Shown here one piece after another: positions 21,642 to 54,040 of a DNA stretch of 64,000 nucleotides. Below the pieces are notes generated by a model. The model did not search any database and had not been told where the DNA came from. It saw nothing but the letters and a program-made list of their open reading frames with translations. How positions within the stretch are numbered: the stretch's first letter is position 1; every line of letters begins with the position of its first letter. This stretch comes from a virus (Duplodnaviria > Heunggongvirae > Uroviricota > Caudoviricetes): positions 273,301-337,300 of the IMG/VR virus record IMGVR_UViG_3300026302_000005; one strand, 5' to 3'. Both the position numbers and the translations under genes were made by a program.

Positions 21642-21835
21642 TTTCGATCTTCCGTTCCACAACCACACAATCTCGGGGGCACGTGTTGTAGGCCAGCATA
21701 CGCTGGTCTTCACCATGAAATTCCGCAACCACTTCTGGGCAAACCGGATATTTTCCGGACCAGAGCAGTTCGTTGTCGAAGCGGCGGTGTTCGAAAATCA
21801 TGACGGGCTCCTATTGGAACCCACCTATACCCGTA

Positions 21836-27726: not shown

Positions 27727-27803
27727 TGGCGGCTCCGGTGGGACTCGAACCCACGACCAACAGTTTTAGAGACCGCTGCTCTAACCAACTGAGCTACGGA
27801 GCC
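27727..27803 (-). tRNA. amber suppressor tRNA (anticodon CTA, reads UAG); Trp-like body (loop CTCTAAA versus E. coli tRNA-Trp CTCCAAA; discriminator G)
   Basis: Acceptor GGCTCCG/CGGAGCC, D-arm GCTC-AGTTGGTTA-GAGC, anticodon stem GCGGT/ACTGT, T-arm GTGGG-TTCGAGT-CCCAC. Confidence 0.7.
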
Positions 27804-27804
27804 A

Positions 27805-29004
27805 TTGCATAAATACATACGTGTTTCTGATAGAAGAGTCAACCCCATAATGCGCCTGTTACAACTCATTGAAGGGACTTCCGACTACATTGACAGGGCA
27901 AAGGATGCTCGTCGAAACATAAGTCTGGATTCCGTTGTTCAAAAAGCCTTGGATATGGCACAGACCGGTCAGTTTACAGAAGAGAGAACTAGGGCCATCA
28001 ATTTTGCTGCCGAAGTAATCCGATCCGGTAAACCCGCCGCTGTGGTGGGTAGAGAATGGGGCTATAAACCGCACAAATCGTTTAACCACAAACATATTGG
28101 ATTGCGACTGTTGATGCGGGCATATACGGTGCTTGGGGGCACACGATCTGGTGTTGATTTCCAATCCCTGATCGAAGCCCCTATTGGAGACTTTGGCACC
28201 ATCGGAGATTTCTCCGATCCCAACGCCTCGATCCCAAACGCTGCGGATCGTCGTGCTGTTACTGCTGAACCGATGATTCGTCGTATCAAGCTGGCTTGGG
28301 AAAAGACGCCATTTCTGTTCAACCTGTTTTTTGCCAACGTTCCCGGAGCCCAAAAGTGGGTAGAGCAGGGATATGTGAGTGCCGGAACTGTTCGATCCGA
28401 GTTTCCGGACATGGCCAGTCGTATCATGGCTGGAAAAGCAGACAAAGCAATCACTGTGGTATTCACCAACAACCTGGGGGATGCCGGGATCAGCTTTACC
28501 CCGTGGATCATGGCACACCGTATCAGCCACGCAATGGTGGTTCCCAACAATACGAATGATCCTCGGCAGGGTGTTCAGAACCGGGCATTCTACACGGGAT
28601 CGGAGAAACTATACACGTTCACCAACAGTCTGATCTATCAGATGTTCTCAAGGTCAACGGTTAGAGTGGGGTCTGATACCCATGAGCAGATATATCGGCA
28701 CATCTACGAATATATCGGCACCATGAAGTCTGCCAGATCGAAACTGCTGGCCCGACCAAATGAATTCTATCACGAACTGTTTGCCCAATACCTACTGAAT
28801 GGAGACATTACGTTCAATGCCTTCACTCCGGAATTTCTGCTGAACTTTGCGGAAGACTCGGGCACCGGGGAACAGCCCCATATCGAGCACCTCGATACCA
28901 TGCTGGGTGAAATGAATGAGACCCTTGCGGGTCTCAAACAGGAACTCCTGAACAGCTTTACGGCTGGGCTATCCCACGCTCAGGGCAAAGTCATCTTCAT
29001 GTGA
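27805..29004 (+). CDS. hypothetical protein (399 aa)
   Basis: Plus-strand ORF. Possible paralog of 25602..26744 with a degenerate H-motif (HRISH). Confidence 0.45.
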   Translation: MHKYIRVSDRRVNPIMRLLQLIEGTSDYIDRAKDARRNISLDSVVQKALDMAQTGQFTEERTRAINFAAEVIRSGKPAAVVGREWGYKPHKSFNHKHIGLRLLMRAYTVLGGTRSGVDFQSLIEAPIGDFGTIGDFSDPNASIPNAADRRAVTAEPMIRRIKLAWEKTPFLFNLFFANVPGAQKWVEQGYVSAGTVRSEFPDMASRIMAGKADKAITVVFTNNLGDAGISFTPWIMAHRISHAMVVPNNTNDPRQGVQNRAFYTGSEKLYTFTNSLIYQMFSRSTVRVGSDTHEQIYRHIYEYIGTMKSARSKLLARPNEFYHELFAQYLLNGDITFNAFTPEFLLNFAEDSGTGEQPHIEHLDTMLGEMNETLAGLKQELLNSFTAGLSHAQGKVIFM

Positions 29005-30112
29005 TCTGTTCCCATGGGTAGTCGTCATAGCCGAAATGCCCACGTGCAGCGGTCTGACGATAAAGGGGACGACGGAGATCGAACCGCTTGATGATGCCGG
29101 AGGGCGACAAGTCGATGGCGTAGTCTTCCAGGATTTCCCGGACCTCTTCCTCGTTCATACCATCCACATGCACCGAAACAGGCTTGGCAACACCGATGGC
29201 ATACCCAACTTGCACTTCGATGTCTCGCATACCATAGACGGCCTTGCAGAGCGTCTTTGCCACATGGCGGGCTGCATAGGCGGCAGATCGGTCAACCTTG
29301 GTCGGGTCTTTGCCAGAGAAAGCGCCACCACCGTGGCGAGCCATACCACCGTAGGTATCGATAATGATCTTCCGACCGGTCAAACCGGAGTCTGCAATTG
29401 GTCCACCAATCGTCCACGGCCCAGCCGGGTTGAGGAAGTATTTCGTATTCGGGGTGACCAGGTTCTGGTATGGCTCAAGCCCACGACGAACCACATCTTC
29501 CAGGTTCGAACGAATCAGACCATACATGCGTTCGGTAACATCGGTATGCACCGATGACAGAACCACGGTGTCGATCTCGATGGGCTCACCCGTATCGTTG
29601 TCATACCGTATCGTGACTTGTGACTTCGCATCCGGTCCCAGCGGGCCCTGACGACGATCCATCTTATGGGCATTGGTGATCGAGCGGGCCACCATCAACG
29701 GCAACGGCATCATCTCGGGCGTATCGTTGCAGGCATACCCGAACATCAGGCCCTGATCACCGGCACCCAGGTTCTCACCATCAGCGGTAACACTGTCACC
29801 GATCTCCCGGGACTGCTCCGTGATGTTGTGAATCTGCTTGACCTTCCACGGATCAAACCCCCATTGAGGATCATCATATCCAATGGCCGTCAGCGTATCT
29901 CGGACGATCTTGCTGATGTCGAGTTCTGCATTGGTGGTCAGTTCCCCGAACACCATAACAGTATCGCCTTTGACAGCAGATTCGATGGCAACACGGCTCA
30001 TCGGGTCCTGACGAAGGCATTCATCAAGAACGGCATCGCTGATCTGGTCACAGACCTTATCAGGGTGGCCATCAGCCACACTCTCCGACGTGAATAGGTA
30101 GGAACCTTTCAT
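28997..30112 (-). CDS. metK: S-adenosylmethionine synthetase
   Basis: N-terminus MKGSYLFTSESVADGHPDKVCDQISDAVLD and GGGAFSGKDPTKVDRSAAYAARHVAK are diagnostic of MetK. Confidence 0.9.
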   Translation of the reverse strand: MKGSYLFTSESVADGHPDKVCDQISDAVLDECLRQDPMSRVAIESAVKGDTVMVFGELTTNAELDISKIVRDTLTAIGYDDPQWGFDPWKVKQIHNITEQSREIGDSVTADGENLGAGDQGLMFGYACNDTPEMMPLPLMVARSITNAHKMDRRQGPLGPDAKSQVTIRYDNDTGEPIEIDTVVLSSVHTDVTERMYGLIRSNLEDVVRRGLEPYQNLVTPNTKYFLNPAGPWTIGGPIADSGLTGRKIIIDTYGGMARHGGGAFSGKDPTKVDRSAAYAARHVAKTLCKAVYGMRDIEVQVGYAIGVAKPVSVHVDGMNEEEVREILEDYAIDLSPSGIIKRFDLRRPLYRQTAARGHFGYDDYPWEQIT

Positions 30113-31124: not shown

Positions 31125-32849
31125 TTACTTCCCGGTCTTGCGGTCACCCATCGGTGCGCCACGCGGGTCTTGGGCCGGGGCGGGCTTTGCGGTGTTCAGT
31201 TTGCGCAGGAAGTCACTGTCGGCCAGGTCGATGGCCGTATCCAGCGGATCACGTGCGGTCTTCGGCGTCGAGATGCCGTCGAGAACCCCATTCAGCCCCT
31301 CGCTGATGTTGACCCCGGCCTGTTGACCAAGAGCTTGAACCAGCGGGAGTTGCAGGCCCATGCTGAGGATCGCGTCTGCGACTTGACCAGCAGCACCACC
31401 ACCGTTGCCAGTGGATTCGCCACCACCGATGTTTCCGCCGCCCATGCCGGTAACGTTGGTCAGGGTGATGCGGTCGATGTTCTGGGCAGGAGCCACCATT
31501 TCGGCGATGATCGCGGGCAGAGCTTCGAGGCGAGCCAGTTGCAGCTTCATCTCGATGATTTCCCCGGTCAGGGCGTTTTCGGCGGCGACCAGTGCGGTCT
31601 TACCTTCGGCTTCGGCCAGGGAGATGGCCAGGGAGCCTTCGGCTTCGGCCTTCTGGGCATCAGCTTTCGCCTTTGCACCGATCAGCACTGCATCAGCGTC
31701 GGCCTGGGCTTTGGTCAGCACCGCAGCAGCCGTATCTTCGGCAGCAGCACGTTGGGTTGCAGCAGCCACACGGGTAGCAGTTGCGGTCTTCTCGGCTTCC
31801 TGTTCGGCCTGGATGATCGCGATCTTCTTGTTACGGTCGGCCACGGCGACTTCACCAGCAGTCTTGACGGCTTCTGAGGCGGAGACCGCTTCGGCACGAG
31901 CAAGGTCGGCTTTGGCACGAGCTTCGGATTCCGCCATGGACTTCTCGTTGACCGCGATCTTACGATCTTGTTCAGCGATTTCCAGGGCCTGCTCTTGGGC
32001 GATACGTGCAGCCTCTTCGCGGCGAGTTGCTTCGGATTGGGCAACAGCGATTGCGGCCTTCGATTCAGCCGTCGCAGTGGACACGGCTTGCTCTTGGGCG
32101 ATCTTCGCTTCTTCCGTCTTCTTCTTGATGGCCAGTTCTTCAAGAACCGCAGTCTGCTCGGTCGTGGCAACCTGCACACGAGCTTCCGATGCGATCTGGG
32201 CGCGTTTCTTTTCGGAGTCAGCCACGACCTGGGCCAGCTTCTGCATACCAACGGCGTTGAAGGCGTTGTTGGCATCCATCTTGTTGAACGGGGTCTGGTC
32301 CAGCATGGTCAGCGATACCGATTCCAGTTCCAGGCCGTTCTGCACGAGGTCTTTGTCCACGGCATCCTGCACCTTTTGGACGAATTCCGCCCGCTTCTCG
32401 TGCAGTTCATCCATGGTCATCTGGGCACCGACCGAACGCAGGGCGTCAACCAGCTTGTCTTCGACCAGCGAACGCAGAGCCTGCGGATCGGACGTCGAGT
32501 TGCCAAGGGTCTTTGCAGCCTGGGTGATGCCTTCTTCATCCGGTTTGACACGGACGTAGAACTTGGTGCCCACATCGACACGCATACGGTCGGCGGTGAT
32601 CAGGGCTTCGGCACCAGAGCGAATGATCTCCAGACCGAGGGTCTTCATGTTGACCCAGGTCAGTTCGTGCATCATCGGGATGATGAGTGCGCCACCGTTC
32701 TGGATGACTTTCTTGCCACCAGCACCGGTGCGGATCATGGCCCGCTCGGGGGTGGTGCGCTTGTAGAGCCGAGCGATGATGAAACCGAAGATGACGATGG
32801 TCACCAGGGCAATCACTGCCGGAACTCCGAGGGTTAGAAGCGTGTTCAT
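31125..32849 (-). CDS. flotillin / SPFH (band 7) family protein, YqiK-like
   Basis: N-terminal TM helix, SPFH domain (IIPMMHELTWVNMKTLGLEI...), long Ala/Glu-rich coiled coil. Confidence 0.75.
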   Translation of the reverse strand: MNTLLTLGVPAVIALVTIVIFGFIIARLYKRTTPERAMIRTGAGGKKVIQNGGALIIPMMHELTWVNMKTLGLEIIRSGAEALITADRMRVDVGTKFYVRVKPDEEGITQAAKTLGNSTSDPQALRSLVEDKLVDALRSVGAQMTMDELHEKRAEFVQKVQDAVDKDLVQNGLELESVSLTMLDQTPFNKMDANNAFNAVGMQKLAQVVADSEKKRAQIASEARVQVATTEQTAVLEELAIKKKTEEAKIAQEQAVSTATAESKAAIAVAQSEATRREEAARIAQEQALEIAEQDRKIAVNEKSMAESEARAKADLARAEAVSASEAVKTAGEVAVADRNKKIAIIQAEQEAEKTATATRVAAATQRAAAEDTAAAVLTKAQADADAVLIGAKAKADAQKAEAEGSLAISLAEAEGKTALVAAENALTGEIIEMKLQLARLEALPAIIAEMVAPAQNIDRITLTNVTGMGGGNIGGGESTGNGGGAAGQVADAILSMGLQLPLVQALGQQAGVNISEGLNGVLDGISTPKTARDPLDTAIDLADSDFLRKLNTAKPAPAQDPRGAPMGDRKTGK

Positions 32850-32873
32850 GTGAGTTGTAGCTCCACTAGAAGG

Positions 32874-33632
32874 TTACGATTGAAGGCGAGATTGGGCGGT
32901 ATCAAGGCGAAGAGCCTCATAGACCGGCCCCGGTCCACGAAGAACCAGAACGTCGGTTCCTTGTGGTAGTTCAGGCTCCCCAGCATACGGGATCACCCGG
33001 ATGTTGTGGAGGTTTCCATGCCGGTCGCGGACATCGGCACGAGCAGGAAGATCAACACGGGCAGTGCCAATGGCAATCTTTCCGACCGAGCCACCGAGCG
33101 AGCGGCGTGATATGATATCGGTGGTGGTCTTGGGGATCAGACTGGCGAATGCACGACTGATCCACTTGGTGCCGATCAGGGCCGGGACAAACGCCGCAGC
33201 CGATGCGATCCATCCGAACAGCATGAACCCGAGCAGGCTTTGCAGAACGAACTGACCCAGGAAGCCGACGATGGAAAAGCTTGCAGCAAATCCGATCAGC
33301 CACACCATCAGCGGGACCGAACCGATTTCAAACCATTTGAGAACAGATTCGAGGGCTGACACATCGCCAACATCTGCGACATTCGCATCTGCATCAGCAC
33401 CACCCATGTCGAAGGCAATACGAATGTCCCCTTCGACATCGGCCACGTTGACATCGATTTCCGGGTCCAGGTCGATGTCAGCATCACTGTCACCACCGAG
33501 AATAGAGAACCCCGTGGTGATCGACATGATCACTTCCAACACCAGCACAGCCAGCAGGAGAGCCGCCGCAATGCCGAATGGATAGAGCGGGCCACCAGAG
33601 GTAAAGAGCAGTTCCATAGAGAGTTGTCCCAT
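32874..33632 (-). CDS. NfeD-like / YqiJ-like membrane protein (partner of flotillin)
   Basis: Multi-TM N-terminal region plus a C-terminal OB-like segment (GTDVLVLRGPGPVYEAL), located immediately upstream of the flotillin gene. Confidence 0.55.
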   Translation of the reverse strand: MGQLSMELLFTSGGPLYPFGIAAALLLAVLVLEVIMSITTGFSILGGDSDADIDLDPEIDVNVADVEGDIRIAFDMGGADADANVADVGDVSALESVLKWFEIGSVPLMVWLIGFAASFSIVGFLGQFVLQSLLGFMLFGWIASAAAFVPALIGTKWISRAFASLIPKTTTDIISRRSLGGSVGKIAIGTARVDLPARADVRDRHGNLHNIRVIPYAGEPELPQGTDVLVLRGPGPVYEALRLDTAQSRLQS

Positions 33633-33651
33633 CGTTGTCCCTCGTTTCGAA

Positions 33652-34152
33652 TCAGGTTGGGTTGCTTATCGCATGTGGTTCAGCATTCGTCAATGGCAAG
33701 TCGTAGACCACTACATGACGATCTTTCATTGCGAACTCAATGATCTGGGAGATAGTTTTCCAATCACCCCCACCCAGGGACGATCCGATCCGAGGAATCG
33801 CCACAACCGGGATGTCATGATAGTCGTCATCGATATTCTCTGTGATCCAGTCGTAGACTTGAACAAAGATCGATTCGATTCCCTGGTAGCTCACATACTG
33901 TTTGCCATCACGACCGAACCACTCCTGGGACACCGCATTGGCGATGAACTTCCCCTTGGTTGGCACCCAGACGATCTGCCCGACACGGAGACCGGATAGC
34001 TCGTATGCGGCCCGATATCCGGCATATGCTTCGGGGTAGACTTCACGAATGGCCTTCGCCACCCCCGAGCCCATCACGCCCTGAGCGTTGCAGCCGTGAA
34101 GGATGATGGGTTCATCAGCGACCATGAGATCGCCCGTTTTGTAGATCAACAC
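33652..34152 (-). CDS. macro-domain protein (ADP-ribose binding / O-acetyl-ADP-ribose deacetylase-like)
   Basis: Motif ILHGCNAQGVMGSGVAKAI. The probable start is a TTG at 34152. Confidence 0.65.
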   Translation of the reverse strand: MLIYKTGDLMVADEPIILHGCNAQGVMGSGVAKAIREVYPEAYAGYRAAYELSGLRVGQIVWVPTKGKFIANAVSQEWFGRDGKQYVSYQGIESIFVQVYDWITENIDDDYHDIPVVAIPRIGSSLGGGDWKTISQIIEFAMKDRHVVVYDLPLTNAEPHAISNPT

Positions 34153-34260
34153 TGTGGGAGTTCCTGAAATGGTAAGGGCCTACGCTTTCACGTAAGCCCC
34201 CTGTTGTGTCTGGTATTCTGTAACAGACAATTTAGGCAGGGGAGCCCGAATTGTCAAGGG

Positions 34261-34776
34261 TCAGAGACCCAATTTTCGCAAGGCCACCGGTGTCAGAGCA
34301 GAAATCATGTCGGCACCCAGTTGTTCCGCCGTGGGGGTCTTCCCTTCGGATATCAGCTTGGCTGATTTGCTGGTTGCGGCCACGTAGATGCCCTCGATTG
34401 GTCCACCCACGTAGGACATAGCGTCCATCACGTAATCTTCTCGGGACGGCATTGCACCCCGCAGCACGGCCTGTGCGGTCTTCGGGATCAGGATCGCATA
34501 CAGCATGTTGGCCGCAGCAATGCTGTCGATCTCAATCTGAACACCCTGAACAGTGATCGTGGCACCATTCACAAATCGTGCAGCCAGGTTGAACCCACCA
34601 TCGATGATGTTGTTGGCTGTTTGGATCGGGCTGGTGACAGCCGACACCCCGGCCCGAGCAACCATACCGGCACCCCCAACAGCCGCACCCACGGCGGTGT
34701 CCACGGTATCAGCGGCAAACCCGGTCAATCCAGTCGGGTCAAGATCAGTGATCGATTTGAATAGGCTTCCAAACAT
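34261..34776 (-). CDS. hypothetical Ala/Gly-rich protein
   Basis: ORF. Confidence 0.4.
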   Translation of the reverse strand: MFGSLFKSITDLDPTGLTGFAADTVDTAVGAAVGGAGMVARAGVSAVTSPIQTANNIIDGGFNLAARFVNGATITVQGVQIEIDSIAAANMLYAILIPKTAQAVLRGAMPSREDYVMDAMSYVGGPIEGIYVAATSKSAKLISEGKTPTAEQLGADMISALTPVALRKLGL

Positions 34777-34790
34777 GATGTATCCTTCGG

Positions 34791-34994
34791 TCAGATTGCG
34801 GGTTCAAGGCGTTGTGCGCCACAGGTCAGTGCGAAATACGCTTCCGCACCAGTGGTGTCGTGGACAACATCGACCCGGTTCGTTCCGTTGCAGGTTTTCA
34901 CCGTCACAGTTTCTCCAAGTTTGGCAAAACCCGGGGCTCCCATTCCGGTAATCCGTAGTTTGTCACCAACCTTGGTCTCAGAAAACTTGATCAT
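34791..34994 (-). CDS. small hypothetical protein
   Basis: ORF. Confidence 0.3.
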   Translation of the reverse strand: MIKFSETKVGDKLRITGMGAPGFAKLGETVTVKTCNGTNRVDVVHDTTGAEAYFALTCGAQRLEPAI

Positions 34995-35218
34995 CCATGG
35001 ACCCCTTCGTCATGATCGTGTCCACAATGCTCGCAATTATGCGTTTCTTTTTCGAAAGCGTCAAGCGCAATCTGATTGAGATTACCAATAATCTCAGCCA
35101 GATTCAACACGAGGATGCGAATGCGATCCAATTGCAGGCGAAGCTGCGTCTCAGCGACCTCGCCATACAAGGTTTCCAGGAGGTCTGTTGCTTCTTTGGC
35201 CAGTGGGTGTGATGCCAT
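34991..35218 (-). CDS. small protein with a C-terminal Cys/His metal-binding tail (CEHCGHDHDEGVHG)
   Basis: ORF. Confidence 0.3.
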   Translation of the reverse strand: MASHPLAKEATDLLETLYGEVAETQLRLQLDRIRILVLNLAEIIGNLNQIALDAFEKETHNCEHCGHDHDEGVHG

Positions 35219-35219
35219 G

Positions 35220-36194
35220 CTAGATGCCCTTTTTGATAAGCCGCTCGAACTCTCGAAGCCGCTTGTAAACGGAGATCAATTCGACAATCGTCGGCCACGA
35301 TTTCACCAGAAACTGCAAGCTGGTTTCGACCCGACCGAATGCACGAACGATCTGTTGAACCACACCCAGTGTAACCAGTCCACCGGCGATGGTAGGTGCC
35401 AGAGCCAGATATGGGACGATCACCATACCTTGGAAGTATGACCAACGAAACATGTTGAAATACATGTAGTGGAAGTAGGATCGGTAGTGAACCTTGCGGA
35501 CACGATCATATAGGTCCGTTAGCACGGGTTTGTCGATCATGATGGGATCATTCTCGGCCAACACCAGCCGCTTTCGATATGCAGCCTCTTCCTTTTGAAT
35601 GTCATACTCGATGCCAGGGAGCTTATAGCCCACGATGGCCAGCGCAATGGTGCCACCCAGTGCTGCAATGATCGCCACCCACACCAGACCGTGGGATACC
35701 TCTCCCACCCATGGAAGCATGGTAACGCTCTTGGACAATTCCCATAGAATCGGGACGAAGGCCACAAGGGTCAGGATGGCATCCAACAGACCAACACCCA
35801 GGCTTTCCATGATCCTGGCAAACTTCAAGGTGTCTTCCTGAACTCGCTGCGATGCCCCCTCGATGGTTCGAGCTTTCCCGTAGTGTTCGTGGTAGTATTC
35901 GGTCATACTGGTGCGCCACCGGAAAATCCAGTGGGACGTGAAGAAGTCTTTGGCAACCGAGATGACCACCCATAGCCCAGCTATACCAGCGAATGTGAAC
36001 AGCAAACTGATGAACTCGGCTTCGGTAACCGATCCAGGTTCAGTCAGAGCCTTCTGTAGGACGTCGTAGAAGGAACCAAACCACTCGTTGATCTGGACGT
36101 CAAGCTGAACCATCCACCAGGATGCGATGATGATCACCCCAGTCCCCATGATACTCCAGGGTAGCCACTTACGGGTATAGAAAAATCTGAACAT
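35220..36194 (-). CDS. sbmA: SbmA/BacA-family inner-membrane peptide transporter homolog
   Basis: Blocks RWRTSMTEYY, EGASQRVQEDTLKFA, AAYRKRLV and FHYMYFN match E. coli SbmA (recalled from memory). Confidence 0.65.
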   Translation of the reverse strand: MFRFFYTRKWLPWSIMGTGVIIIASWWMVQLDVQINEWFGSFYDVLQKALTEPGSVTEAEFISLLFTFAGIAGLWVVISVAKDFFTSHWIFRWRTSMTEYYHEHYGKARTIEGASQRVQEDTLKFARIMESLGVGLLDAILTLVAFVPILWELSKSVTMLPWVGEVSHGLVWVAIIAALGGTIALAIVGYKLPGIEYDIQKEEAAYRKRLVLAENDPIMIDKPVLTDLYDRVRKVHYRSYFHYMYFNMFRWSYFQGMVIVPYLALAPTIAGGLVTLGVVQQIVRAFGRVETSLQFLVKSWPTIVELISVYKRLREFERLIKKGI

Positions 36195-36253: not shown

Positions 36254-36796
36254 TCAGGTGTTCCGGTCGTAGTGACTGGCCCTGACTTGCTCAGGTCGAA
36301 TGACTATCGCCGCTTTTGGGAGATGAATCAGGACCTCATGTTCTACAATCCCAGACATGATATCACCCTCGCTGTCGTCATGATACTCAGCGGGTAGGTC
36401 TGGGAAGTAGAACAACACGTTCGCGGCTGGAAAATGCGATTCTATGATGATCGTTGGTAGACCATCACCTATGGTGTCGCCATAGAAATACTCCACCATG
36501 TCTTCATTGGTAGACCACGATGACACCAACCCGGTTTCATACCGGATTGGGCGTTTCTGTTCGATCAGTGTCACCCAATCCTGCTCGGGTATCGCAGTAG
36601 AACGGTATACCGTTCCTATTGAGGTCCGGACCATGCTTTTCAGTTCAGGGGCATGCTGTAGTAGAAAGTCTGTCAGAAACTTTTTGGTTCCGTCCACCCT
36701 AGCAGATGGTCGCATGGTGGACCACCTATGCAGCATATTGAGAAGATCACTTTGTGATTCCCAATCTACCCGCTCTACCAGATCACGAAGTTTCAT
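36254..36796 (-). CDS. hypothetical protein
   Basis: ORF. Confidence 0.4.
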   Translation of the reverse strand: MKLRDLVERVDWESQSDLLNMLHRWSTMRPSARVDGTKKFLTDFLLQHAPELKSMVRTSIGTVYRSTAIPEQDWVTLIEQKRPIRYETGLVSSWSTNEDMVEYFYGDTIGDGLPTIIIESHFPAANVLFYFPDLPAEYHDDSEGDIMSGIVEHEVLIHLPKAAIVIRPEQVRASHYDRNT

Positions 36797-37475
36797 TCCA
36801 CAACTCGTCCATGAAGCCTTTCATGTATTTACTGGCCGTCATGGTGCGGTTCGTGCCATGATGCTGAACTCGATCATCTTGGAATCGAATCGTCACAGTC
36901 TTATCACCACGCATTCCCGAGCCGACCTGAGCCTTGCGATCCGCAGCCATGTCCGCGTGTTGTGCGCCCTCTGCCATGCCATCCAGGCGGGCTTCCAGGG
37001 CCTCACGAGCCTCACGATAGCTGGTATCACGGGAACGGGTCTGACGGGCCTCCAGGAGCCCCGTGGGGACGTGTGTGAGCCTACAACTGTTCTGGTGCTT
37101 GTTCCGGTGTTGTCCACCAGCACCGGAGCCGCTGAACCATTCAACCTGGAAGTCAGAATCTTCGCGACAAAGATATGCGGGGTCAACCTGGCGATCTGGG
37201 TCAAGAACAGCAACGATGACCGTGCTGGTATGGACGCGACCGCGACGTTCGGTTGGGGGAACTCGTTGGATGCGATGGCCACCGGCAGCATACTCCAACC
37301 CAGATAGATCATCACCGATTACGGTAATCCGGATTCCGTGCTGGCCGTTATCCTCGGTTAGGTGTAGTCACCCATAGCGCACCGCCATGCGGCGATAGGC
37401 TTGTGCAAGGTCCTGCACAAACAGTTGGCTGTCTTTTCCACCTTCGGCGGATTTGATCTCAATGATCTTTTTCAT
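36783..37475 (-). CDS. prfH: RF-H (PrfH)-like peptide chain release factor homolog lacking RF domain 1; in-frame TGA at codon 36 (37368..37370) aligned to a conserved Trp of RF1
   Basis: GGQ motif (SGSGAGGQHRNK). PxT-type motif (GGHRIQRVPPTE). The upstream segment MKKIIEIKSAEGGKDSQLFVQDLAQAYRRMAVRYG-[TGA]-LHLTEDNGQHG aligns with RF1 [34 protein letters not shown]. RBS GGAGA upstream of ATG 37475. Confidence 0.6.
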
Positions 37476-39372: not shown

Positions 39373-40119
39373 TCAATCGTATGTCATACCAAGAAACTGA
39401 AAAATCTGGGTCAAATCCCCACGATAGTTTTCCAGGTCACCGGTTTGACCGGATCGGTTGTCCATGATGTAGGTGGTGTTTCCGGGCTCGGTAATGATGG
39501 ATTTGAACATCTCACTGGGAACACACACAGAATCGCCAATCAGTGTCGGGTTTTTGTTGAGGATAGCACCGGTCACAATGTAGGTCGGAGCTTCTTCGCG
39601 ATCCGCCACTATCGACCGGGCCAGAAACTCTAACCGACGCCATATGCCCCGGTTGAACCCTGGGTTCTGTGGGACCACGTTGCTGAGATAGAATGTCTGG
39701 AGCATGCTTACGCTATCCTCCATCATGTCCCCGGCTGGAACCATATGTCCGCGATCATATCCAGAACCACGGTAGTCGGATGGAGTTGATGCATGATCCT
39801 GGAGCAATCCCGGATCGACCCGGAATACGTCGGTGCGTGGCTCTATTCCATCGACCTCACTGGCCACCAGGTTTTCAAACGTCAAGATCGGTATTTTGCA
39901 GCGAGTGTCATAGATGATCGCGTAGTTGATACGACAGATCGTGATCAACCCCTCTCGATCAGACATCAGTTCAAACGGGAAGAACTGCGGACACCGACTC
40001 TGCTGTAGCCCATCGTAGTAGTTGGGGATGTCCGTGTAAACGGGGTTCTCAATGTATTCGGCCCTGACACCGATGGGTGTCAGGGCCAACAACAAGGCAA
40101 GGATCGCTCTGATGATCAC
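39373..40119 (-). CDS. secreted DNA/RNA non-specific endonuclease (NucA / Serratia nuclease family)
   Basis: Signal peptide MIIRAILALLLALTPIGVRA. Catalytic DRGHMVP motif. Confidence 0.7.
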   Translation of the reverse strand: MIIRAILALLLALTPIGVRAEYIENPVYTDIPNYYDGLQQSRCPQFFPFELMSDREGLITICRINYAIIYDTRCKIPILTFENLVASEVDGIEPRTDVFRVDPGLLQDHASTPSDYRGSGYDRGHMVPAGDMMEDSVSMLQTFYLSNVVPQNPGFNRGIWRRLEFLARSIVADREEAPTYIVTGAILNKNPTLIGDSVCVPSEMFKSIITEPGNTTYIMDNRSGQTGDLENYRGDLTQIFQFLGMTYD

Positions 40120-44050: not shown

Positions 44051-45952
44051 TCAACCCCCACGAACAAGGGGTTTTTGTTTCGGAATAACCGCAGGCACGA
44101 GGGGGGACGGCCCTGCCAGATCGCCGACAACGCTCAGCATCCGCCCCAGACGACCTTCGATCAGTTCCTGGGTCACAGGAACACCCATAGACGCAGCCAG
44201 AGACAGGCTGATCCGGATGGCGTTCTTGATCTGCCGCCCGTTGACCGGGTAGGTCTTGGCCATGTAGGGCAGATCGACCTTGATCCCATCGAGACCCGCA
44301 GCCGACAGGATGTTGGTCCATACGGTGTGACGGATGTCATCGGTGAAGTCCGGGTATTTCAGGATCACGCTGATACGGGACAGCACAGCCGTGTCGAAGT
44401 CAGCGACTCGGTTGGTGGTCAGGAACAGCACACCGTTGTGGTATTCCAGCAGACAGAGGAAAACCCCGACCATGGCGTTCCGCACGATGTCGTCCTTGCT
44501 GCGGGCTTCCAGGAAGATGTCCGCTTCGTCCAGCAGCAGCACCGCGTTCCAGGCCGTGACCATCTCCAGGACCTCCTGGAGGGTTTCCTCGACCTCTTTC
44601 GGGGTGACACCGAGTTCTCCCACACTGATCGAGTAGAGCGGGCGATGCAGGATTTCTGCCACCGACTCAGCCGTCAGAGTTTTGCCCAGGCCCGGGGTGC
44701 CGTGGAGCAGGAAGATCGCACCACCACCCTTGCCGGAGATGATGTCAGAGAACATATCTTCGGACTGCTCGACCAGAGACCGAACCTCAGCCTTGACATC
44801 GGGGTCAAGAACCAGAAGATCATAGGCGTCATCACGGAATGCAATCGGCGACAAGCCGGAGTAGCGGAACGTGCCCCACTTCTTCTTGGACATGCTGAAC
44901 CCCTTCACATACCCAGGGGTCGTGAACAGGTAATCGCCGGGAACTTCTTCCAGGTCTTCTTCGGACTCAAAGCTGGTCCGATCCCACCGATCCTGGTCCA
45001 CAATCTGTTCGTGCATGGCCAGGTCGATCATGCAGCGACCATTGGCGGTCATCTGAACGCTGCTCCAGCCCGCTTTGACCTCGATCTTGCCGGTATAGGA
45101 CAGATACTGCGGGGCGTGGACATGAGCCTGCCACACCTGACCGCGACGGCTCAGCTTTGTCAGTTCGTCTTCGGTTGCCACATGAACGGGAAGATCGGAA
45201 AGAACGGCATCACCACGGAAACCACTGATGGACACCGATTCGAACGACTTCCCGAAGTATTTCCCGTTGCTGGTGTAGCGAACCATCTTGACCGCGAAGT
45301 AGGGACCAGCAAAGCCGAAGCCATATTCGGTATCCGTAACCACGGCACCTTCCAGTTCGTCGTCGCCCGATCCGCCAAAGGCGATCTTGACCCCCTTCTT
45401 GAAATGCATGCTCAGCAGATCATAGGAAATCTTCCCCATCTCGACCATGCGCTGGTAGATATCCCGGGTCTCCTGAATCTGACCTTGCAGGAATGCGATG
45501 AATTCCGCCACCTGTTCGGCTTCACGTTCGGACTCATCAGCACCCTCAAACCCGTCGAGTTCATCGATCAGCTTGGATACCTCCACCAGTGTATCATTGG
45601 ACCGGTGGAACTCACGAATCTCAGAATGCTGCCGGAGGAACGACCGAAGCCCGGAGGACTGCGGGAGCAGTCGGAGCATCAGGCTGTCAAACATCGGGAC
45701 GCCATCCCAGTTGAAGCGGAGCACCCGCTCAACGACGAATGCCGAATGCACACTCACCGTGGTGACCTGAACACACTTGTAATCGATGGTCTCCTCACGG
45801 GACCGACCGACGACGTATTCCGCTGGCGGCGGGGTCGTTTTCGTTGCGGCCACAGCGGCTGCTTTGCTTACCACGTCGTGCCCAAGCCCGGTCATGGGAA
45901 GCGACTTCTTTCCATTGGCCTTGTTGGACTTCTTACCTTTGCTCTTTCCCAC
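44051..45952 (-). CDS. AAA+ ATPase (C-terminal AAA module; N-terminal about 400 aa of unknown function)
   Basis: Walker A LLHGTPGLGKT, Walker B LLLDEAD, sensor TTNR. Confidence 0.65.
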   Translation of the reverse strand: MGKSKGKKSNKANGKKSLPMTGLGHDVVSKAAAVAATKTTPPPAEYVVGRSREETIDYKCVQVTTVSVHSAFVVERVLRFNWDGVPMFDSLMLRLLPQSSGLRSFLRQHSEIREFHRSNDTLVEVSKLIDELDGFEGADESEREAEQVAEFIAFLQGQIQETRDIYQRMVEMGKISYDLLSMHFKKGVKIAFGGSGDDELEGAVVTDTEYGFGFAGPYFAVKMVRYTSNGKYFGKSFESVSISGFRGDAVLSDLPVHVATEDELTKLSRRGQVWQAHVHAPQYLSYTGKIEVKAGWSSVQMTANGRCMIDLAMHEQIVDQDRWDRTSFESEEDLEEVPGDYLFTTPGYVKGFSMSKKKWGTFRYSGLSPIAFRDDAYDLLVLDPDVKAEVRSLVEQSEDMFSDIISGKGGGAIFLLHGTPGLGKTLTAESVAEILHRPLYSISVGELGVTPKEVEETLQEVLEMVTAWNAVLLLDEADIFLEARSKDDIVRNAMVGVFLCLLEYHNGVLFLTTNRVADFDTAVLSRISVILKYPDFTDDIRHTVWTNILSAAGLDGIKVDLPYMAKTYPVNGRQIKNAIRISLSLAASMGVPVTQELIEGRLGRMLSVVGDLAGPSPLVPAVIPKQKPLVRGG

Positions 45953-46737
45953 TACAGGACACTCCTCATCATATCTTCATGTTCAGCAGATTTCTGCAAC
46001 CGTCGCTCTGCAAAGCGATCTCGCACTTCCTGGATAGCACGGGTTTCCTCATCCCGCAAGACCCGAATTTCAGATTGGATCATATCTTCTACCTGCGAAA
46101 TCTCAAGGAATCTCGTGGGTGTAATATGTTCCATCGTCACTTGGTCGCGTTCGATGAACAATTTCCCCCGATTACCACCGAGATATTCGTAGGTCGAAAC
46201 ACCCTTTACCGAATCAACAACCTCCACATAGAGACGCGATTCGGTTTCACGGATCACACGGACCAGCATACCAGCGGTTCTACCGTGCGGGCGGTAATAG
46301 GATGACTTGGCCCGAATCGCCACCAACCGTTCGACCTTAGCCCGCTTCTCGGCTTCGGCCTGGACAAGCTTCTCATACAAAGCCGATCCGGTCTGTTCCC
46401 AATACTCCCGGGCCTGCTTGGTGAACTGGTAGGGTTGATCATACCAAGCAAAGATACCGGCACGACCAAAGCTGTCTTTCTCTTCTGGTGGTTTCTTGAC
46501 CTGAACAGCCCAACCCCATTTCCAGAACGAGTGAGAGATATCGGTTCGGCCATCCATGTGCTGCTCGAACCAGTCATGCGATTTGGGAACCATCGCAGAC
46601 ATATCGCGATGGAACAACGAGTAGGACCTGGACCCCACATGAGATGCCACACATAGACCGAGGTTTTCTTCGATCATACGCTTCAACACCATCAGGTGCT
46701 TGAGCGTGGGCTTCGCCGGTTCGATCTCTCGTGTCAT
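45952..46737 (-). CDS. hypothetical protein (261 aa), coupled to the AAA+ ATPase
   Basis: ORF with a 1-nt stop/start overlap. Confidence 0.45.
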   Translation of the reverse strand: MTREIEPAKPTLKHLMVLKRMIEENLGLCVASHVGSRSYSLFHRDMSAMVPKSHDWFEQHMDGRTDISHSFWKWGWAVQVKKPPEEKDSFGRAGIFAWYDQPYQFTKQAREYWEQTGSALYEKLVQAEAEKRAKVERLVAIRAKSSYYRPHGRTAGMLVRVIRETESRLYVEVVDSVKGVSTYEYLGGNRGKLFIERDQVTMEHITPTRFLEISQVEDMIQSEIRVLRDEETRAIQEVRDRFAERRLQKSAEHEDMMRSVL

Positions 46738-47849
46738 ATCAGATTTCCCATAACCGCATCAACCACAGTCTGCCGCCACGGCTTCAAGAAAGTCGCAGCC
46801 TTCTCATAGGCCCACCGCTCGACCAACTTGACGGCTTCGGTGAACCGCACATCATAGTCGGCTTCGGTGATCACCGTATACGGCTTTTCCAATGCATCCA
46901 ATCGTTCGAGTAGGTTGTGATGGAATTTCATCCGACCTTCATCATCCAGCACCCGGGTTCCATCCTGAACACGCGGGACCGTCGGTGCCAGCACCAGATA
47001 ATGGTCGATGGTCGATTGCCCTGATGCAACCCTGTCGGCCTGAGAGCAGGCTTCGCCCAGATAGATGGGAGCAAACATGCTGGTGACAATCGCCTCGGTA
47101 TCGGTGAAGCTGACAAACTCGCCGGATTTCTGTGCGCTCCAGATCATCGATTGTTGCATCCACACGATGTTGTTGAAATCCTCCATCGTCAAGTCTGGAC
47201 GAGCTTCACTGATGATCCGACCCCACTCGGGGGCATAGGTCGTGTTGAAGTGCTTTGCCAGCTTCTTGACCATCGTAGACTTGCCGGTGGATTCCGCACC
47301 CATCACGGCAACCGTGAGGCCGATGTCAGCTTTGGCCCAATCACTGACCATGTGGAAGTTTGCAAACGGAGCGGTGCGAACCATTGTTGCACTGATCGGG
47401 AACAGTTCTCGGTCAGGATCGATGGGAAACCACGTTGCCTTGGCTGTTCCCGCCCGAGGCCACCGCTTGTTGATCTGATCAGCGATCTCTGCACCATACC
47501 GATCCGATGTGAATACACGATCTGCATCCCACAGATACACCTGGTTCTGGTCCATCCAGAAATCCCAAAATGCCTTGTCCGTGATGGTGCCGGTGGTATC
47601 GGAGTTCGTCGGGCGGTCGTAATCCTGGTCACGAACGATTCTCCACGACTTCCCAGGAACCTTGGGAAGGGAGTTGAGGTAGTTGTGAACCCACCCATAC
47701 CGCTGTTCATATGTGAAGCAGTCCTTCACGGAATCACCCAAGAGGACGGTGAGTTCGGTGCAGTTGGACCAGGCCATGCGGAGCATGAATTCGTGTCCCT
47801 TAGTGAGGGGCATAAAGCGACCGAGTGTGATACCTTTGTTCATGACCAA
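46734..47849 (-). CDS. nadR: NadR-like bifunctional NMN adenylyltransferase / ribosylnicotinamide kinase
   Basis: N-terminal nucleotidyltransferase motif GRFMPLTKGHEFM (HxGH type) plus C-terminal P-loop GAESTGKST. Confidence 0.7.
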   Translation of the reverse strand: MVMNKGITLGRFMPLTKGHEFMLRMAWSNCTELTVLLGDSVKDCFTYEQRYGWVHNYLNSLPKVPGKSWRIVRDQDYDRPTNSDTTGTITDKAFWDFWMDQNQVYLWDADRVFTSDRYGAEIADQINKRWPRAGTAKATWFPIDPDRELFPISATMVRTAPFANFHMVSDWAKADIGLTVAVMGAESTGKSTMVKKLAKHFNTTYAPEWGRIISEARPDLTMEDFNNIVWMQQSMIWSAQKSGEFVSFTDTEAIVTSMFAPIYLGEACSQADRVASGQSTIDHYLVLAPTVPRVQDGTRVLDDEGRMKFHHNLLERLDALEKPYTVITEADYDVRFTEAVKLVERWAYEKAATFLKPWRQTVVDAVMGNLI

Positions 47850-47863
47850 TCTCCTATCCGCCC

Positions 47864-47892
47864 CATATAACAGGTCTTGATGGCGGCGTCAA
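47864..47892 (-). promoter_or_regulatory. sigma70-like promoter for nadR (TTGACG-17 nt-TATATG) followed by a GGAGAT RBS
   Basis: Read directly on the minus strand between the pnuC terminator and the nadR ATG. Confidence 0.4.
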
Positions 47893-47917
47893 CAAAAAAG
47901 GCCCGCCTAAGCGGGCC
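47891..47917 (-). terminator. rho-independent terminator after pnuC (GGCCCGC-TTAG-GCGGGCC plus TTTTTTGTT)
   Basis: Hairpin plus T-run on the minus strand. Confidence 0.6.
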
Positions 47918-47939
47918 CTTTCGCAATTGCAGTGAATGA

Positions 47940-48794
47940 TCACCAGGAAGCATATCCGGCGTTGTGAGGCACAATGGTCCCATCCGAACTGGTCGAGTTT
48001 TCGGCATCCCACCGGCGCTTGATACCCGCGACAGCCGCTGCACGATCCTCTTTCCATTCGCGATACCAGGACACGAGACCGTATGTGGCCAAGCACAGGA
48101 AGATCACGTAGAGACCGGAGGTCACATAGAGTTCTTTCTGCCAGTAGACGGGGATCGCGATGATGTCCACGGTGATCCAGAGCAGCCAGTTCTCCAGATA
48201 CTTGCGAAGCATGATGATGCTGGCGATGATGCTGAGCCACATGATGGTGGCGTCGGCCACGGCGAAGTCTGCACCAGCAGCAACCATCTTGGGAACCCAC
48301 CAGGCCATAGCCGCCACAAAGAGAACCACCCACAGAGCCCGAGCCTTGTAGTCCAGGACCTTGATCTTCATGCTGTCGGTCGGGCTCAGCGTGGCTTTGA
48401 CATCACCAAACTTGTTGCCAACCCAGTCCCAGATGGTCGGACCCCACTTCCACATGACGAAGCCGACGATCTGGAGCGGGGCATAGAATGCCCATTGCAG
48501 ATACATGTCGGAAAGCAGGTTGTATTCCTTGAACAGATAGCCGAACAACAGAACACCGGCGAGGCCGAACCAGTAGTTGATCAGCTTCTGCTTTGCCAGC
48601 AGATAGACGTTGACCAACAAAAGGGCCGAAGCGGTAAACTCGATCAGGCCGAGCCAAGAGTTGAAGTAGTTGAAGATCATGCCAGCGTTGAACAACACAA
48701 CGGTGAGGAAGATCGAGGCGAAAGCGGCACCCAAGATCGCGATCTTGGTGTCGCGAGCGAAGTTCGGACCATGCCGGTCACAAAAATCGGACAT
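47940..48794 (-). CDS. pnuC: PnuC-family nicotinamide riboside transporter
   Basis: Multi-TM protein with Trp-rich PnuC-like segments. ATG 48794 has a GGGAGA RBS (the track start at 48854 is a GTG). Adjacent to nadR. Confidence 0.65.
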   Translation of the reverse strand: MSDFCDRHGPNFARDTKIAILGAAFASIFLTVVLFNAGMIFNYFNSWLGLIEFTASALLLVNVYLLAKQKLINYWFGLAGVLLFGYLFKEYNLLSDMYLQWAFYAPLQIVGFVMWKWGPTIWDWVGNKFGDVKATLSPTDSMKIKVLDYKARALWVVLFVAAMAWWVPKMVAAGADFAVADATIMWLSIIASIIMLRKYLENWLLWITVDIIAIPVYWQKELYVTSGLYVIFLCLATYGLVSWYREWKEDRAAAVAGIKRRWDAENSTSSDGTIVPHNAGYASW

Positions 48795-48850
48795 GGTAGT
48801 CTCCCAATGGAAAGGTTGGAGGTGACCGGTATTGGTCACCCCCGTTGTGA

Positions 48851-48988
48851 TCACTCGGTCGCGACGGCTTCGTCGTCCATGCTGTGCAGGAACGATTCGG
48901 TCATGTTCATCACGGTGAATGCGAGGACAAGAGCCACGACAACCAGCGCGATTTTCTTCGGTCCGAGAGATTTGAGTTTTTCGATCAT
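48851..48988 (-). CDS. small membrane protein (45 aa)
   Basis: Not in the track. RBS AAGGA. Single TM helix. Confidence 0.3.
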   Translation of the reverse strand: MIEKLKSLGPKKIALVVVALVLAFTVMNMTESFLHSMDDEAVATE

Positions 48989-49035
48989 ATGAAAGTCCTT
49001 GCGGCGGAATTGCCTGGGTCTCCTATACGGACGAA

Positions 49036-49197
49036 TCAGGAGAATGTCAAGATCAATCCTTGCACCACGAACACAAACACGATGACCCCCAGGATGGCGG
49101 GGAGACCCGTCATCTTGTCGGCAGTGGATTCGGAGATTTTCGGGTAGGCAGTGATAGCCCGGTCGAACATCTCAGCAGCTTTGCTTTTTTCAGCCAT
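49036..49197 (-). CDS. small tail-anchored membrane protein (53 aa)
   Basis: Not in the track. C-terminal TM helix. Confidence 0.3.
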   Translation of the reverse strand: MAEKSKAAEMFDRAITAYPKISESTADKMTGLPAILGVIVFVFVVQGLILTFS

Positions 49198-49221
49198 GGT
49201 CGTTGTCCTATGATTGACCGG

Positions 49222-49590
49222 TCAGACCGGAGTTCCCTCGTATCGTGCAAGCGGGTAGTAATCGGTCAGATCGGCCTGAGCCGAAAGAAGCCGATCTTGA
49301 GCCCGATTGGCATTGATCTCCGCAAAGCGGAGTTCTCGCTCGAACCAGTCCTCCGGTGGTTTGACCACCAAGGTCCACTCGAACTCGGCACCGAACCACC
49401 GATCACCGGCCAGGCTCGCCCCTCGGTAACTCAACCAGGTCTCAACGAACCGGTTGAACTGGGTTTCCCCGCCTTCACGATCCTCCAGATGACCACATTC
49501 ATCATCATCGCTGTTCGGGGACACATCGATCAGATCGTATTCGAACTCTTTGTCACCGACCTCTCGGTGTTTCAGCCATACTTTTCCCAT
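49222..49590 (-). CDS. hypothetical protein
   Basis: ORF. Confidence 0.4.
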   Translation of the reverse strand: MGKVWLKHREVGDKEFEYDLIDVSPNSDDDECGHLEDREGGETQFNRFVETWLSYRGASLAGDRWFGAEFEWTLVVKPPEDWFERELRFAEINANRAQDRLLSAQADLTDYYPLARYEGTPV

Positions 49591-49597
49591 ATCGACC

Positions 49598-50089
49598 TCA
49601 TTTCATCAGAGGAAAATCACGCAGGATCGGACGCAGAACATCCTTGAACCCGAACACATATGCCGCCGTGATTTCTGCACGGAAGCACAGCATCATACCG
49701 TTGCCTGTCGGCACCGGAGGATGATCCTCGGGGTGCTTGATCAGGTCCGCATACTCCCGGTGCAACAGGTAGGGGTAGGTGGGATCGACCGACAGTGCTG
49801 CCGGGTGATCCATAGCCTGAGCCATGGTCACAGCAGTCTGGATTTCCATCAAAGAACCAGACAACGTGATGGTGGTGCCGAACCCATCGGCAGAACGAAC
49901 CCACCAATTGAAGTTACGCTCCACTGTCATATCGGTGAGCGGGTCGGTGCGGCCCGCAAGTCTGCGCTGCACATCGTAGGTGAACTTGTTTGCCGCATGG
50001 GCCCCATGAGCCACGGCCTTGCCCGGGTTCATACTGTCCAGGTCGTTCCGCATCAACAGATACAGATAGGGTGCAGGTGCATCAGCCAT
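49598..50089 (-). CDS. PTH2-family peptidyl-tRNA hydrolase-like protein
   Basis: Motif YLLMRNDLDSMNPGKAVAHGAHAA matches the PTH2 signature (vvRtDL.M..GKiaaQ.aHAa). Strong RBS AAGAGGAG upstream of ATG 50089. Confidence 0.55.
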   Translation of the reverse strand: MADAPAPYLYLLMRNDLDSMNPGKAVAHGAHAANKFTYDVQRRLAGRTDPLTDMTVERNFNWWVRSADGFGTTITLSGSLMEIQTAVTMAQAMDHPAALSVDPTYPYLLHREYADLIKHPEDHPPVPTGNGMMLCFRAEITAAYVFGFKDVLRPILRDFPLMK

Positions 50090-53886: not shown

Positions 53887-54040
53887 GGTTGGCTATGCCG
53901 GTAACGACTAACACAGGTCCAGGCATAGCTCAATGGGTATTTACACAGCAGTCATTTTTTCTGTCATGGTTTTGTAACGAAAAAGGACCGCCCTTTTGCA
54001 CTCATTGAGTGTGGCGGTCCGTGACATCGTGTGGGGAATT

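Follow-up and report, generated by a model that had tools for sequence, protein, structure and literature searches.

A 64,000-nucleotide stretch of a tailed virus (IMG/VR record IMGVR_UViG_3300026302_000005, positions 273,301 to 337,300 of that record; hereafter the window) carries, side by side at 46734..48794, a gene for a PnuC-like transporter of nicotinamide riboside (NR) and a gene for a NadR-like enzyme. We read this pair as an NR salvage module of the NARP3 type in a jumbo phage, with the likely benefit of surviving immunity that depletes nicotinamide adenine dinucleotide (NAD+), and we give this reading a probability of about 0.72. External NR would diffuse into the infected cell through the PnuC-like channel. 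The kinase domain of the NadR-like protein would then convert NR to nicotinamide mononucleotide (NMN), trapping it, and the adenylyltransferase domain would produce NAD+ from NMN and ATP. The phage would thereby keep or rebuild the NAD+ pool during infection, and the most likely selective benefit would be survival of Sir2-HerA, DSR and Thoeris-type immunity, as for the phage proteins Bas30_86 and Bas30_87. The biochemical assignment, NR import followed by conversion of NR to NAD+, is highly probable from homology and predicted structure; a counter-defence role for this particular pair is somewhat favoured, by analogy with characterized relatives. For the window copy, we infer NR specificity, enzymatic activity, the timing of expression and the anti-defence role.

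A phage operon of NadR and PnuC was put forward as a route of NAD+ reconstitution in 2024 (bioRxiv 10.1101/2024.02.11.579819). A study of jumbo phages from the same year read clusters of pnuC, nadR and nadM as a capacity for independent NAD+ synthesis and reported pnuC in 68 of 174 “NAD-jumbo phages” (PMC11662467). In August 2026, Yan et al. (Sci Adv; PMC13464706) demonstrated the route and gave it the name NARP3, working with proteins found in Escherichia phage TrudiRoth and in T5-like Salmonella and Escherichia phages. In that study, Bas30_87 bound NR, Bas30_86 turned NR first into NMN and then into NAD+, as tracked by high-performance liquid chromatography, and the two together restored NAD+ and rescued phages T7 and lambda 10^3-10^4-fold from Sir2-HerA and DSR1 (PMC13464706). 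A preliminary description of the window, made from the sequence, had proposed NR salvage as a distinct phage solution to NAD+ depletion; this was correct in substance, since Bas30_86 and Bas30_87 are homologous to the window pair, but the idea was already published and demonstrated when the analysis was made.

Both open reading frames (ORFs) of the pair are present at the coordinates given. They lie on the minus strand, 90 nt apart, and the interval 46734..48794 spans them exactly, with the nadR stop codon at one end and the pnuC ATG at the other. The upstream gene (47940..48794) encodes 284 amino acids, its ATG at 48794 is preceded by the ribosome-binding site GGGAG, and its product is, by homology, a Pnu-family NR transporter. 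The protein matches the Pfam family of NMN/NR transporters, PF04973, at an E-value of 1.5e-38 and 132.9 bits (gathering score 27.3), and it passes the cutoff of the NCBIfam PnuC equivalog TIGR01528 with 78.5 bits against a required 42.45. It also matches phrog_1880, annotated as “PnuC-like” (4.6e-25), and a phmmer search found the PnuC structure 4QTN at 2.1e-15. An AlphaFold2 model with a predicted local distance difference test score (pLDDT) of 86.7 has eight membrane helices, at residues 12-35, 47-67, 73-90, 94-129, 149-172, 178-195, 201-219 and 223-266, and 4QTN is its sole significant fold match in the Protein Data Bank (PDB). These helices correspond to seven core transmembrane helices and one extra N-terminal transmembrane helix, followed by a C-terminal tail of about 30 amino acids. 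The family's ligand motif, WxxW(x)3D/N (PMC5749112), is present as W203, W206 and D210, and the glutamine of the P-x-Q-x-x-G motif in helix 5 (Q94 of Bas30_87) is retained as Q108. The gate tryptophans at the ends of transmembrane helices 3 and 7 (W115 and W243) are shared by all 31 homologues compared. The extra N-terminal helix aligns with the N-terminal helix of 4QTN and recurs in a 63%-identical PnuC of a related phage contig. In Neisseria mucosa PnuC (4QTN), this helix has been linked to trimerization (PMC5749112), and it may by analogy affect the oligomeric state of the window protein.

The downstream gene (46734..47843) encodes a protein of 369 amino acids counted from the ATG at 47843, which is also the start in public gene calls; the longest ORF begins at a TTG at 47849. 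An AGGAG ribosome-binding site (47855..47851) lies 7 nt upstream of the ATG. The protein combines an N-terminal NMN adenylyltransferase (NMNAT) domain with a C-terminal ribosylnicotinamide kinase (RNK) domain, the latter assigned to Pfam AAA_28 (7.5e-21). It matches the NadR profile TIGR01526 (nadR_NMN_Atrans) at 4.8e-48 and essentially end to end, with residues 3-335 on profile positions 1-324, and phrog_3462 at 1.8e-54. Four solved NadR structures were matched by phmmer, including 8x7f (8.5e-27), 1lw7 (1.4e-25) and the entries 9x6f (1.2e-25) and 9x6h, which from their residue numbering appear to be the phage enzyme Bas30_86. The AlphaFold2 model has a mean pLDDT of 93.9 and was aligned by Foldseek to 8x7f over 366 columns covering both domains, with an E-value of 3.6e-22 and TM-scores of 0.72 and 0.76. 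It also superposes on 1lw7 and the 6gy* entries across both domains, and its N-terminal half independently matches archaeal NMNATs.

Catalytic motifs of both activities are intact. The NMNAT domain contains GRFMPLTKGH (residues 8-17, with TKGH at 14-17) and ISATMVR (139-145), and the RNK domain contains the Walker A motif GAESTGKST (180-188), the Walker B motif FTDTEA (245-250) and the lid motif QDGTR (293-297). Within these motifs, G16, H17, R145, G182, E184, S185, G187, K188, D248, T249 and R297 are invariant in 35 NadR homologues. The N-terminal helix-turn-helix (HTH) DNA-binding domain of trifunctional enterobacterial NadR is absent, as in the NadR types of Haemophilus influenzae, Lactococcus lactis and phages and unlike the E. 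coli regulator; the protein begins at the NMNAT motif GxFxPxT/HxGH. The profile scores, which far exceed anything expected by chance, together with the motifs, predicted folds and gene linkage, thus bear out the preliminary description in its central claim, that a phage carries adjacent pnuC-like and nadR-like genes; the PF04973 check that it had suggested came out well above the gathering score, and the corresponding check on NadR and NMNAT profiles gave strong matches that stay below equivalog level, as described below.

The window pair resembles NARP3 in several respects. In both, adjacent, same-strand phage genes encode a PnuC extended by an N-terminal helix and a NadR-like protein that combines RNK and NMNAT domains without an HTH, and the two share the same catalytic motifs and the same predicted chemistry from NR through NMN to NAD+. 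Membership in NARP3 is therefore indicated for architecture, domain content and core motifs, as judged from sequence and models. Among the differences, the window PnuC is 25-31% and the window NadR 26-29% identical to the Bas30 type. In the window pnuC precedes nadR, whereas the Bas30-type locus of SH9 has nadR first and, after a 1-nt gap, pnuC; the window pair is also split by a 90-nt spacer with a terminator-like hairpin and a TTGACG box. The carriers also differ: NARP3 was defined in T5-like enterobacterial phages, whereas the window belongs to a jumbo phage of about 376 kb that is kin to phages of Xanthomonas, Rhizobiales and Burkholderia.

Mutagenesis has identified K10/F11, F110, S112/D115, E80/P84/G89, E230 and D275 as residues needed by Bas30_86 (PMC13464706). 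The window enzyme retains F11, I141 and D275 as well as the core motifs for nucleotide binding; alignments of the loops that hold E80, P84 and G89 are unreliable at the 26% identity between the two proteins. K10 is replaced by arginine. Arginine at this position is presumably the native residue of archaeal NMNATs (see 1m8g and 1m8f, which are entries for R11 mutants).

Several observations weigh against the proposed reading. The NadR-like protein falls below both NCBIfam equivalog cutoffs, with 164.1 bits against 341.15 for TIGR01526 and 133.4 against 201 for NF005988, and because both are missed it is a divergent member of the NadR family and not an equivalog by NCBI thresholds. For comparison, a protein of the Bas30_86 type also fails TIGR01526 (270 bits) and passes NF005988 (253 bits against 201). 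E230 of Bas30_86 is replaced by isoleucine, which is also the residue in the canonical NadR 8x7f, and the docking residues K163, R167 and K168 are replaced by alanine, leucine and threonine. On the transporter side, N180 of Bas30_87 corresponds to D210, an allowed variant of the family motif, and N45 to leucine, with an asparagine three residues on. The terminator-like hairpin between the genes speaks against obligatory co-expression, and co-transcription is not assured. Among the approximately 77 window ORFs scanned, none was another NAD-pathway or NAD-consuming gene (Nampt, Nudix, phosphoribosyl pyrophosphate (PRPP) synthase, Sir2, ADP-ribosyltransferase or NAD-dependent ligase), and no NAD+-depleting defence of the host is known. 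Finally, NARP3 itself was tested by heterologous expression only, and not in the native phage (PMC13464706).

Some of these features could also be read as signs that the transporter imports a different B-vitamin-like compound that is then trapped by a P-loop kinase, in which case there would be no NAD+ module. The Pnu family includes the thiamine carrier PnuT and the riboflavin carrier PnuX, and the aspartate variant of the ligand motif is that of PnuT, while N. mucosa PnuC and Bas30_87 have asparagine; the sub-equivalog scores of the NadR-like protein point the same way. We consider this explanation very improbable. The aspartate variant is common to the whole clade, including bacterial operons in which pnuC overlaps nadR, and the transporter passes the PnuC equivalog cutoff, while no thiamine or riboflavin family scored. 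Moreover, the NMNAT domain of its partner is complete, with every catalytic motif present, and the partner's fold matches NadR and archaeal NMNATs.

The phage origin of the locus is well supported. Exact copies of both proteins sit on a 375,951-bp contig, and the window is part of a contig of about 376 kb from an uncultivated jumbo phage. This assignment is based on the 28 tRNA genes that are interspersed among short, nearly all co-directional ORFs of the window; on PHROG matches that include a virion structural protein (phrog_1383, 1.4e-46) together with phrog_2087 and phrog_10079; and on a conserved window protein whose best matches are in the jumbo phages X1, XacN1, Atu_ph07, Phosso and FLC9, which infect Xanthomonas, Sinorhizobium, Burkholderia and Agrobacterium. 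If the region came instead from a bacterial chromosome or a megaplasmid, the pair would represent ordinary host NR salvage. The nearest relatives of both genes, at 48-55% identity, do lie in clearly bacterial neighbourhoods, and the 64 kb of the window yielded neither a terminase nor a capsid gene. Against this, in addition to the tRNAs, the virion protein and the jumbo-phage matches, the window contains HNH and T5orf172-type endonucleases, bacterial housekeeping genes were not seen in it, and syntenic relatives are located on contigs of 190-260 kb. A bacterial source is scarcely credible given these features. A megablast search of 46000..49200 against 50,697 phage records gave zero matches, and the phage therefore has no close cultured relative.

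A more serious alternative accepts the same biochemistry from NR to NAD+ and differs in its purpose, which would be general metabolic support for replication or for NAD-consuming phage enzymes instead of counter-defence. The jumbo-phage clusters of pnuC, nadR and nadM were read in this way, as NAD+ synthesis capacity (PMC11662467). The window is also rich in genes of metabolic or host-like character, among them S-adenosylmethionine (SAM) synthetase, a CCA-adding enzyme, SbmA/BacA, flotillin and the 28 tRNAs, and Pfam and PHROG scans found no recognized anti-defence gene adjoining pnuC-nadR. On the other hand, the only direct experiments on such a pair gave a counter-defence phenotype. The DNA ligase of the window is ATP-dependent and hence places no demand on NAD+. 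The pair occupies a variable slot, filled with other cargo in the related contig L014 (below), and its counterpart in a further contig (L010, below) has Acb1 and a NatV-like gene nearby; both situations are typical of accessory counter-defence genes. We regard metabolic support as the sole purpose as unlikely, while noting that the two roles are not mutually exclusive. Survival of NAD+-depleting immunity remains the preferred account of the benefit.

Linkage of the two genes is common among viruses. A profile-based scan of IMG/VR found a PnuC-like gene within 3 kb of the NadR-like gene in 65 of 78 viral loci, always on the same strand (65/65) and in both gene orders; an exact-peptide scan of IMG/VR with a single NadR protein found nothing. 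In total, 800 phage records have a NadR-like gene and 154 a PnuC-like gene, and adjacent pnuC-nadR genes are annotated in large cultured phages, including Bacillus phage Kirov and Lysinibacillus phage LysYB1 (PHROGs 1880 and 3462). The best cultured-phage match for both genes is Rhizobium phage RHph_I1_18, with NadR 33-36% and PnuC 38-48% identical and the same gene order; unlike those of the window, its pnuC and nadR overlap and adjoin baseplate genes. At least eight metagenomic contigs contain close homologues of both window genes. In another phage contig, of 103 kb (L010; ENA ERZ27315062 k141_821607), five small ORFs separate the pnuC and nadR-like genes, and both the anti-CBASS gene Acb1 and an NMNAT-Nudix (NatV-like) gene lie no more than 6 kb away. 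This arrangement places NR salvage in an anti-defence neighbourhood, beside part of a NARP2-like route. NARP2 (NadV/Nampt and the NMNAT-Nudix protein NatV, as in vibriophage KVP40) and NARP1 (Adps and Namat) likewise reconstitute NAD+ in phages facing NAD+-depleting defence, but they use nicotinamide and PRPP or ADP-ribose as substrates, with other enzymes and no transporter.

The closest sequences of all are pnuC-nadR operons in metagenome-assembled genomes of Pseudomonadota, with NadR 48-51% and PnuC 50-55% identical to the window proteins. One example is contig JBCBBH010000005.1 of GCA_038531945.1. These operons have plainly bacterial chromosomal neighbours, including TonB receptor, GGDEF, LysR and bactofilin genes. 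They share with the window the gene order and the WxxW(x)3D motif. They differ in that their genes overlap by about 11 nt, with no spacer, whereas the window has 90 nt, and in that their PnuC proteins, of 216-224 amino acids, lack the N-terminal helix and the C-terminal tail of the window protein. A functional counterpart, with classical NR uptake and metabolic trapping, is provided by NadR with PnuC in H. influenzae and L. lactis. Since both window genes are equally diverged from the bacterial operons and share their gene order, the sequences suggest that pnuC-nadR was acquired as a unit. It is an evenly balanced question whether this was an independent capture of a Pseudomonadota operon by a jumbo phage, followed by remodelling through the split by terminator and promoter, the N-terminal helix of PnuC and placement in a swappable slot. 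If so, “NARP3” would be polyphyletic and would extend well outside the Enterobacteriaceae phages in which it was defined.

The 90-nt spacer contains elements that resemble transcription signals. Nineteen nucleotides past the pnuC stop codon lies a hairpin typical of intrinsic terminators, AAAGGGCCCGC-TTAG-GCGGGCCTTT followed by a T-run (47891..47921, minus strand). Its GC-rich stem of 12 bp folds as RNA at -28.1 kcal/mol (z -3.2), with 0 of 200 shuffled sequences as stable, and it is among the three strongest hairpin and T-run sites of the window. The hairpin was found by reading the sequence and was confirmed by folding and by a separate scan for hairpins with T-runs. It is followed, in order, by TTGACG (47892..47887), a 17-nt gap, TATATG (47869..47864), the AGGAG site and the nadR ATG. 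The promoter-like element read from the sequence (47864..47892, minus strand) has a good -35 box and a weak -10 box that lacks the final T, and may act as a promoter. A consensus scan for promoters and terminators over 45800..49800 did not pick up the intergenic hairpin, called no promoter for pnuC or nadR, and gave no sigma-70-like site upstream of pnuC; the promoter box in the spacer was missed because its -10 box lacks the final T.

Comparison with related contigs provides further information on the spacer. L009, which has a 72%-identical NadR, carries at the equivalent place a hairpin whose stem differs in sequence (GGGGCCC-CGAA-GGGCCCC), and the same TTGAC follows it; this argues for a conserved structure. 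TTGAC is invariant in L009 and L008. The spacer of L012 has a hairpin and TTGACA-17-TACATT, and in L013 only 28 nt separate pnuC from nadR. Taken together, these elements make it probable that pnuC is the last gene of one transcription unit and nadR the first of the next. The preliminary description had credited the pair with its own terminator and promoter. A hairpin with a T-run and a TTGACG box do exist, but they split the pair instead of bracketing it, and nothing terminator-like follows nadR, the stop codon of which overlaps the next start (ATGA, 46737..46734). If the split is genuine, it would allow transporter and enzyme to come from separate transcription units, or to be made at different times. 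An Rfam search at E<=1 over 45800..49800 gave no NAD+ riboswitch (nadA or pnuC motif) and no other credible RNA. Two more strong coding-strand terminators of the hairpin and T-run type were seen elsewhere in the window, at ~640..680 (-25.3 kcal/mol) and ~53950..53990 (-20.0 kcal/mol), both on the minus strand; the one at ~677 is directly followed by TTGACT, the same punctuation of terminator and TTGAC as in the spacer.

Directly upstream of pnuC, at 48851..49197 on the minus strand, lie two tiny ORFs of 45 and 53 amino acids in the same orientation, each with one hydrophobic helix; the public contigs L001 and L002 have gene calls for both. A perfect 7-bp inverted repeat, GGTGACC-AATACC-GGTCACC, separates them from pnuC. 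On the other side, the start of a conserved neighbour, ORF261 (45952..46737, minus strand), overlaps the nadR stop. ORF261 has no Pfam, PHROG or NCBIfam match. It abuts a gene for an AAA+ ATPase with DUF7025, and the two (44051..46737, minus strand) are conserved as a pair in related contigs. The AAA+/DUF7025 protein is weakly similar to the anti-phage ATPase IteA. Homologues of ORF261 adjoin nadR in L013, L012 and L008. In the window, L013 and L012, the slot upstream of the ORF261-AAA+ pair is filled by pnuC-nadR; in L014 it contains two outer-membrane beta-barrel protein genes. Because L014 keeps ORF261 and the AAA+ gene with these genes in place of pnuC-nadR, the latter appears to be exchangeable cargo in a conserved backbone, and the slot looks like a hotspot of cargo exchange. 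ORF261 and the AAA+/DUF7025 gene were considered as parts of the NAD module and rejected, given that L014 has both without pnuC-nadR and that ORF261 lacks a family match.

A stand-alone macro-domain gene lies at 33652..34152 on the minus strand, as the preliminary description had reported, and matches PF01661 with 30.1 bits (gathering score 22). The suggestion that it accompanies the NAD module found no support: it is 12.6 kb away amid membrane-protein genes, is DarG-like, and nothing ties it to pnuC-nadR. Its best matches are the macrodomains of DarG antitoxins (NCBIfam NF048014, 59 bits for the macro part; PDB 5m3i and 5m31). From this similarity, the protein could remove DarT-type ADP-ribosylation of DNA; its gene would then be a candidate for counter-defence in its own right, apart from the NAD module. 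The surrounding host-like inner-membrane genes (31125..36194, minus strand) encode an SbmA/BacA peptide transporter (E 2e-131), YqiJ and a flotillin/SPFH protein. After this cluster comes the SAM synthetase gene (28997..30112). Together these genes are an unusual cargo for a phage.

Other features of the window concern translation. A release-factor-like gene (36783..37475, minus strand) matches RF-1 (5.7e-15) and PCRF (5.5e-8), has the GGQ motif SGAGGQHRNK and lacks the N-terminal domain. It contains one in-frame TGA (37370..37368, in the context GGG TGA CTA), at a position that we take to be Trp or Phe in RF1 and RF2. A prfB-style +1 frameshift does not fit, since homology continues in frame downstream of the TGA; the codon could be read through or recoded, could serve as an autoregulatory stop, or could mark a pseudogene. 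One of the 28 tRNAs, encoded at 27727..27803 on the minus strand, has the anticodon CTA, which is of the amber-suppressor type, and is labelled Pyl by ARAGORN; the other 27 tRNAs lie between 5587 and 56708. TAG is the rarest stop codon of window ORFs of at least 100 amino acids (7, against 43 TGA and 10 TAA). The CTA tRNA, the rarity of TAG and the release-factor-like gene are hints of stop-codon manipulation, as in other large phages. Further genes on the minus strand encode the ATP-dependent DNA ligase (13734..15029), the CCA-adding/poly(A) polymerase-family enzyme (20415..21728) and a non-specific endonuclease (Endonuclease_NS; 39373..40119). Other parts of the window hold domains of the MT-A70 methyltransferase, HNH and T5orf172/MUG113 types.

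The window pair is a genuine, intact and divergent example of the NARP3 type, and not a new idea; it opens no new question, the PnuC-NadR hypothesis having already been published and tested. Being only about 25-30% identical to Bas30_86 and Bas30_87, it would be useful for telling which residues matter. It extends an experimentally defined route to a distant, uncultivated lineage of jumbo phages and, because its closest relatives are operons of Pseudomonadota, supports the view that NR-based rebuilding of NAD+ is widespread and has been acquired repeatedly.

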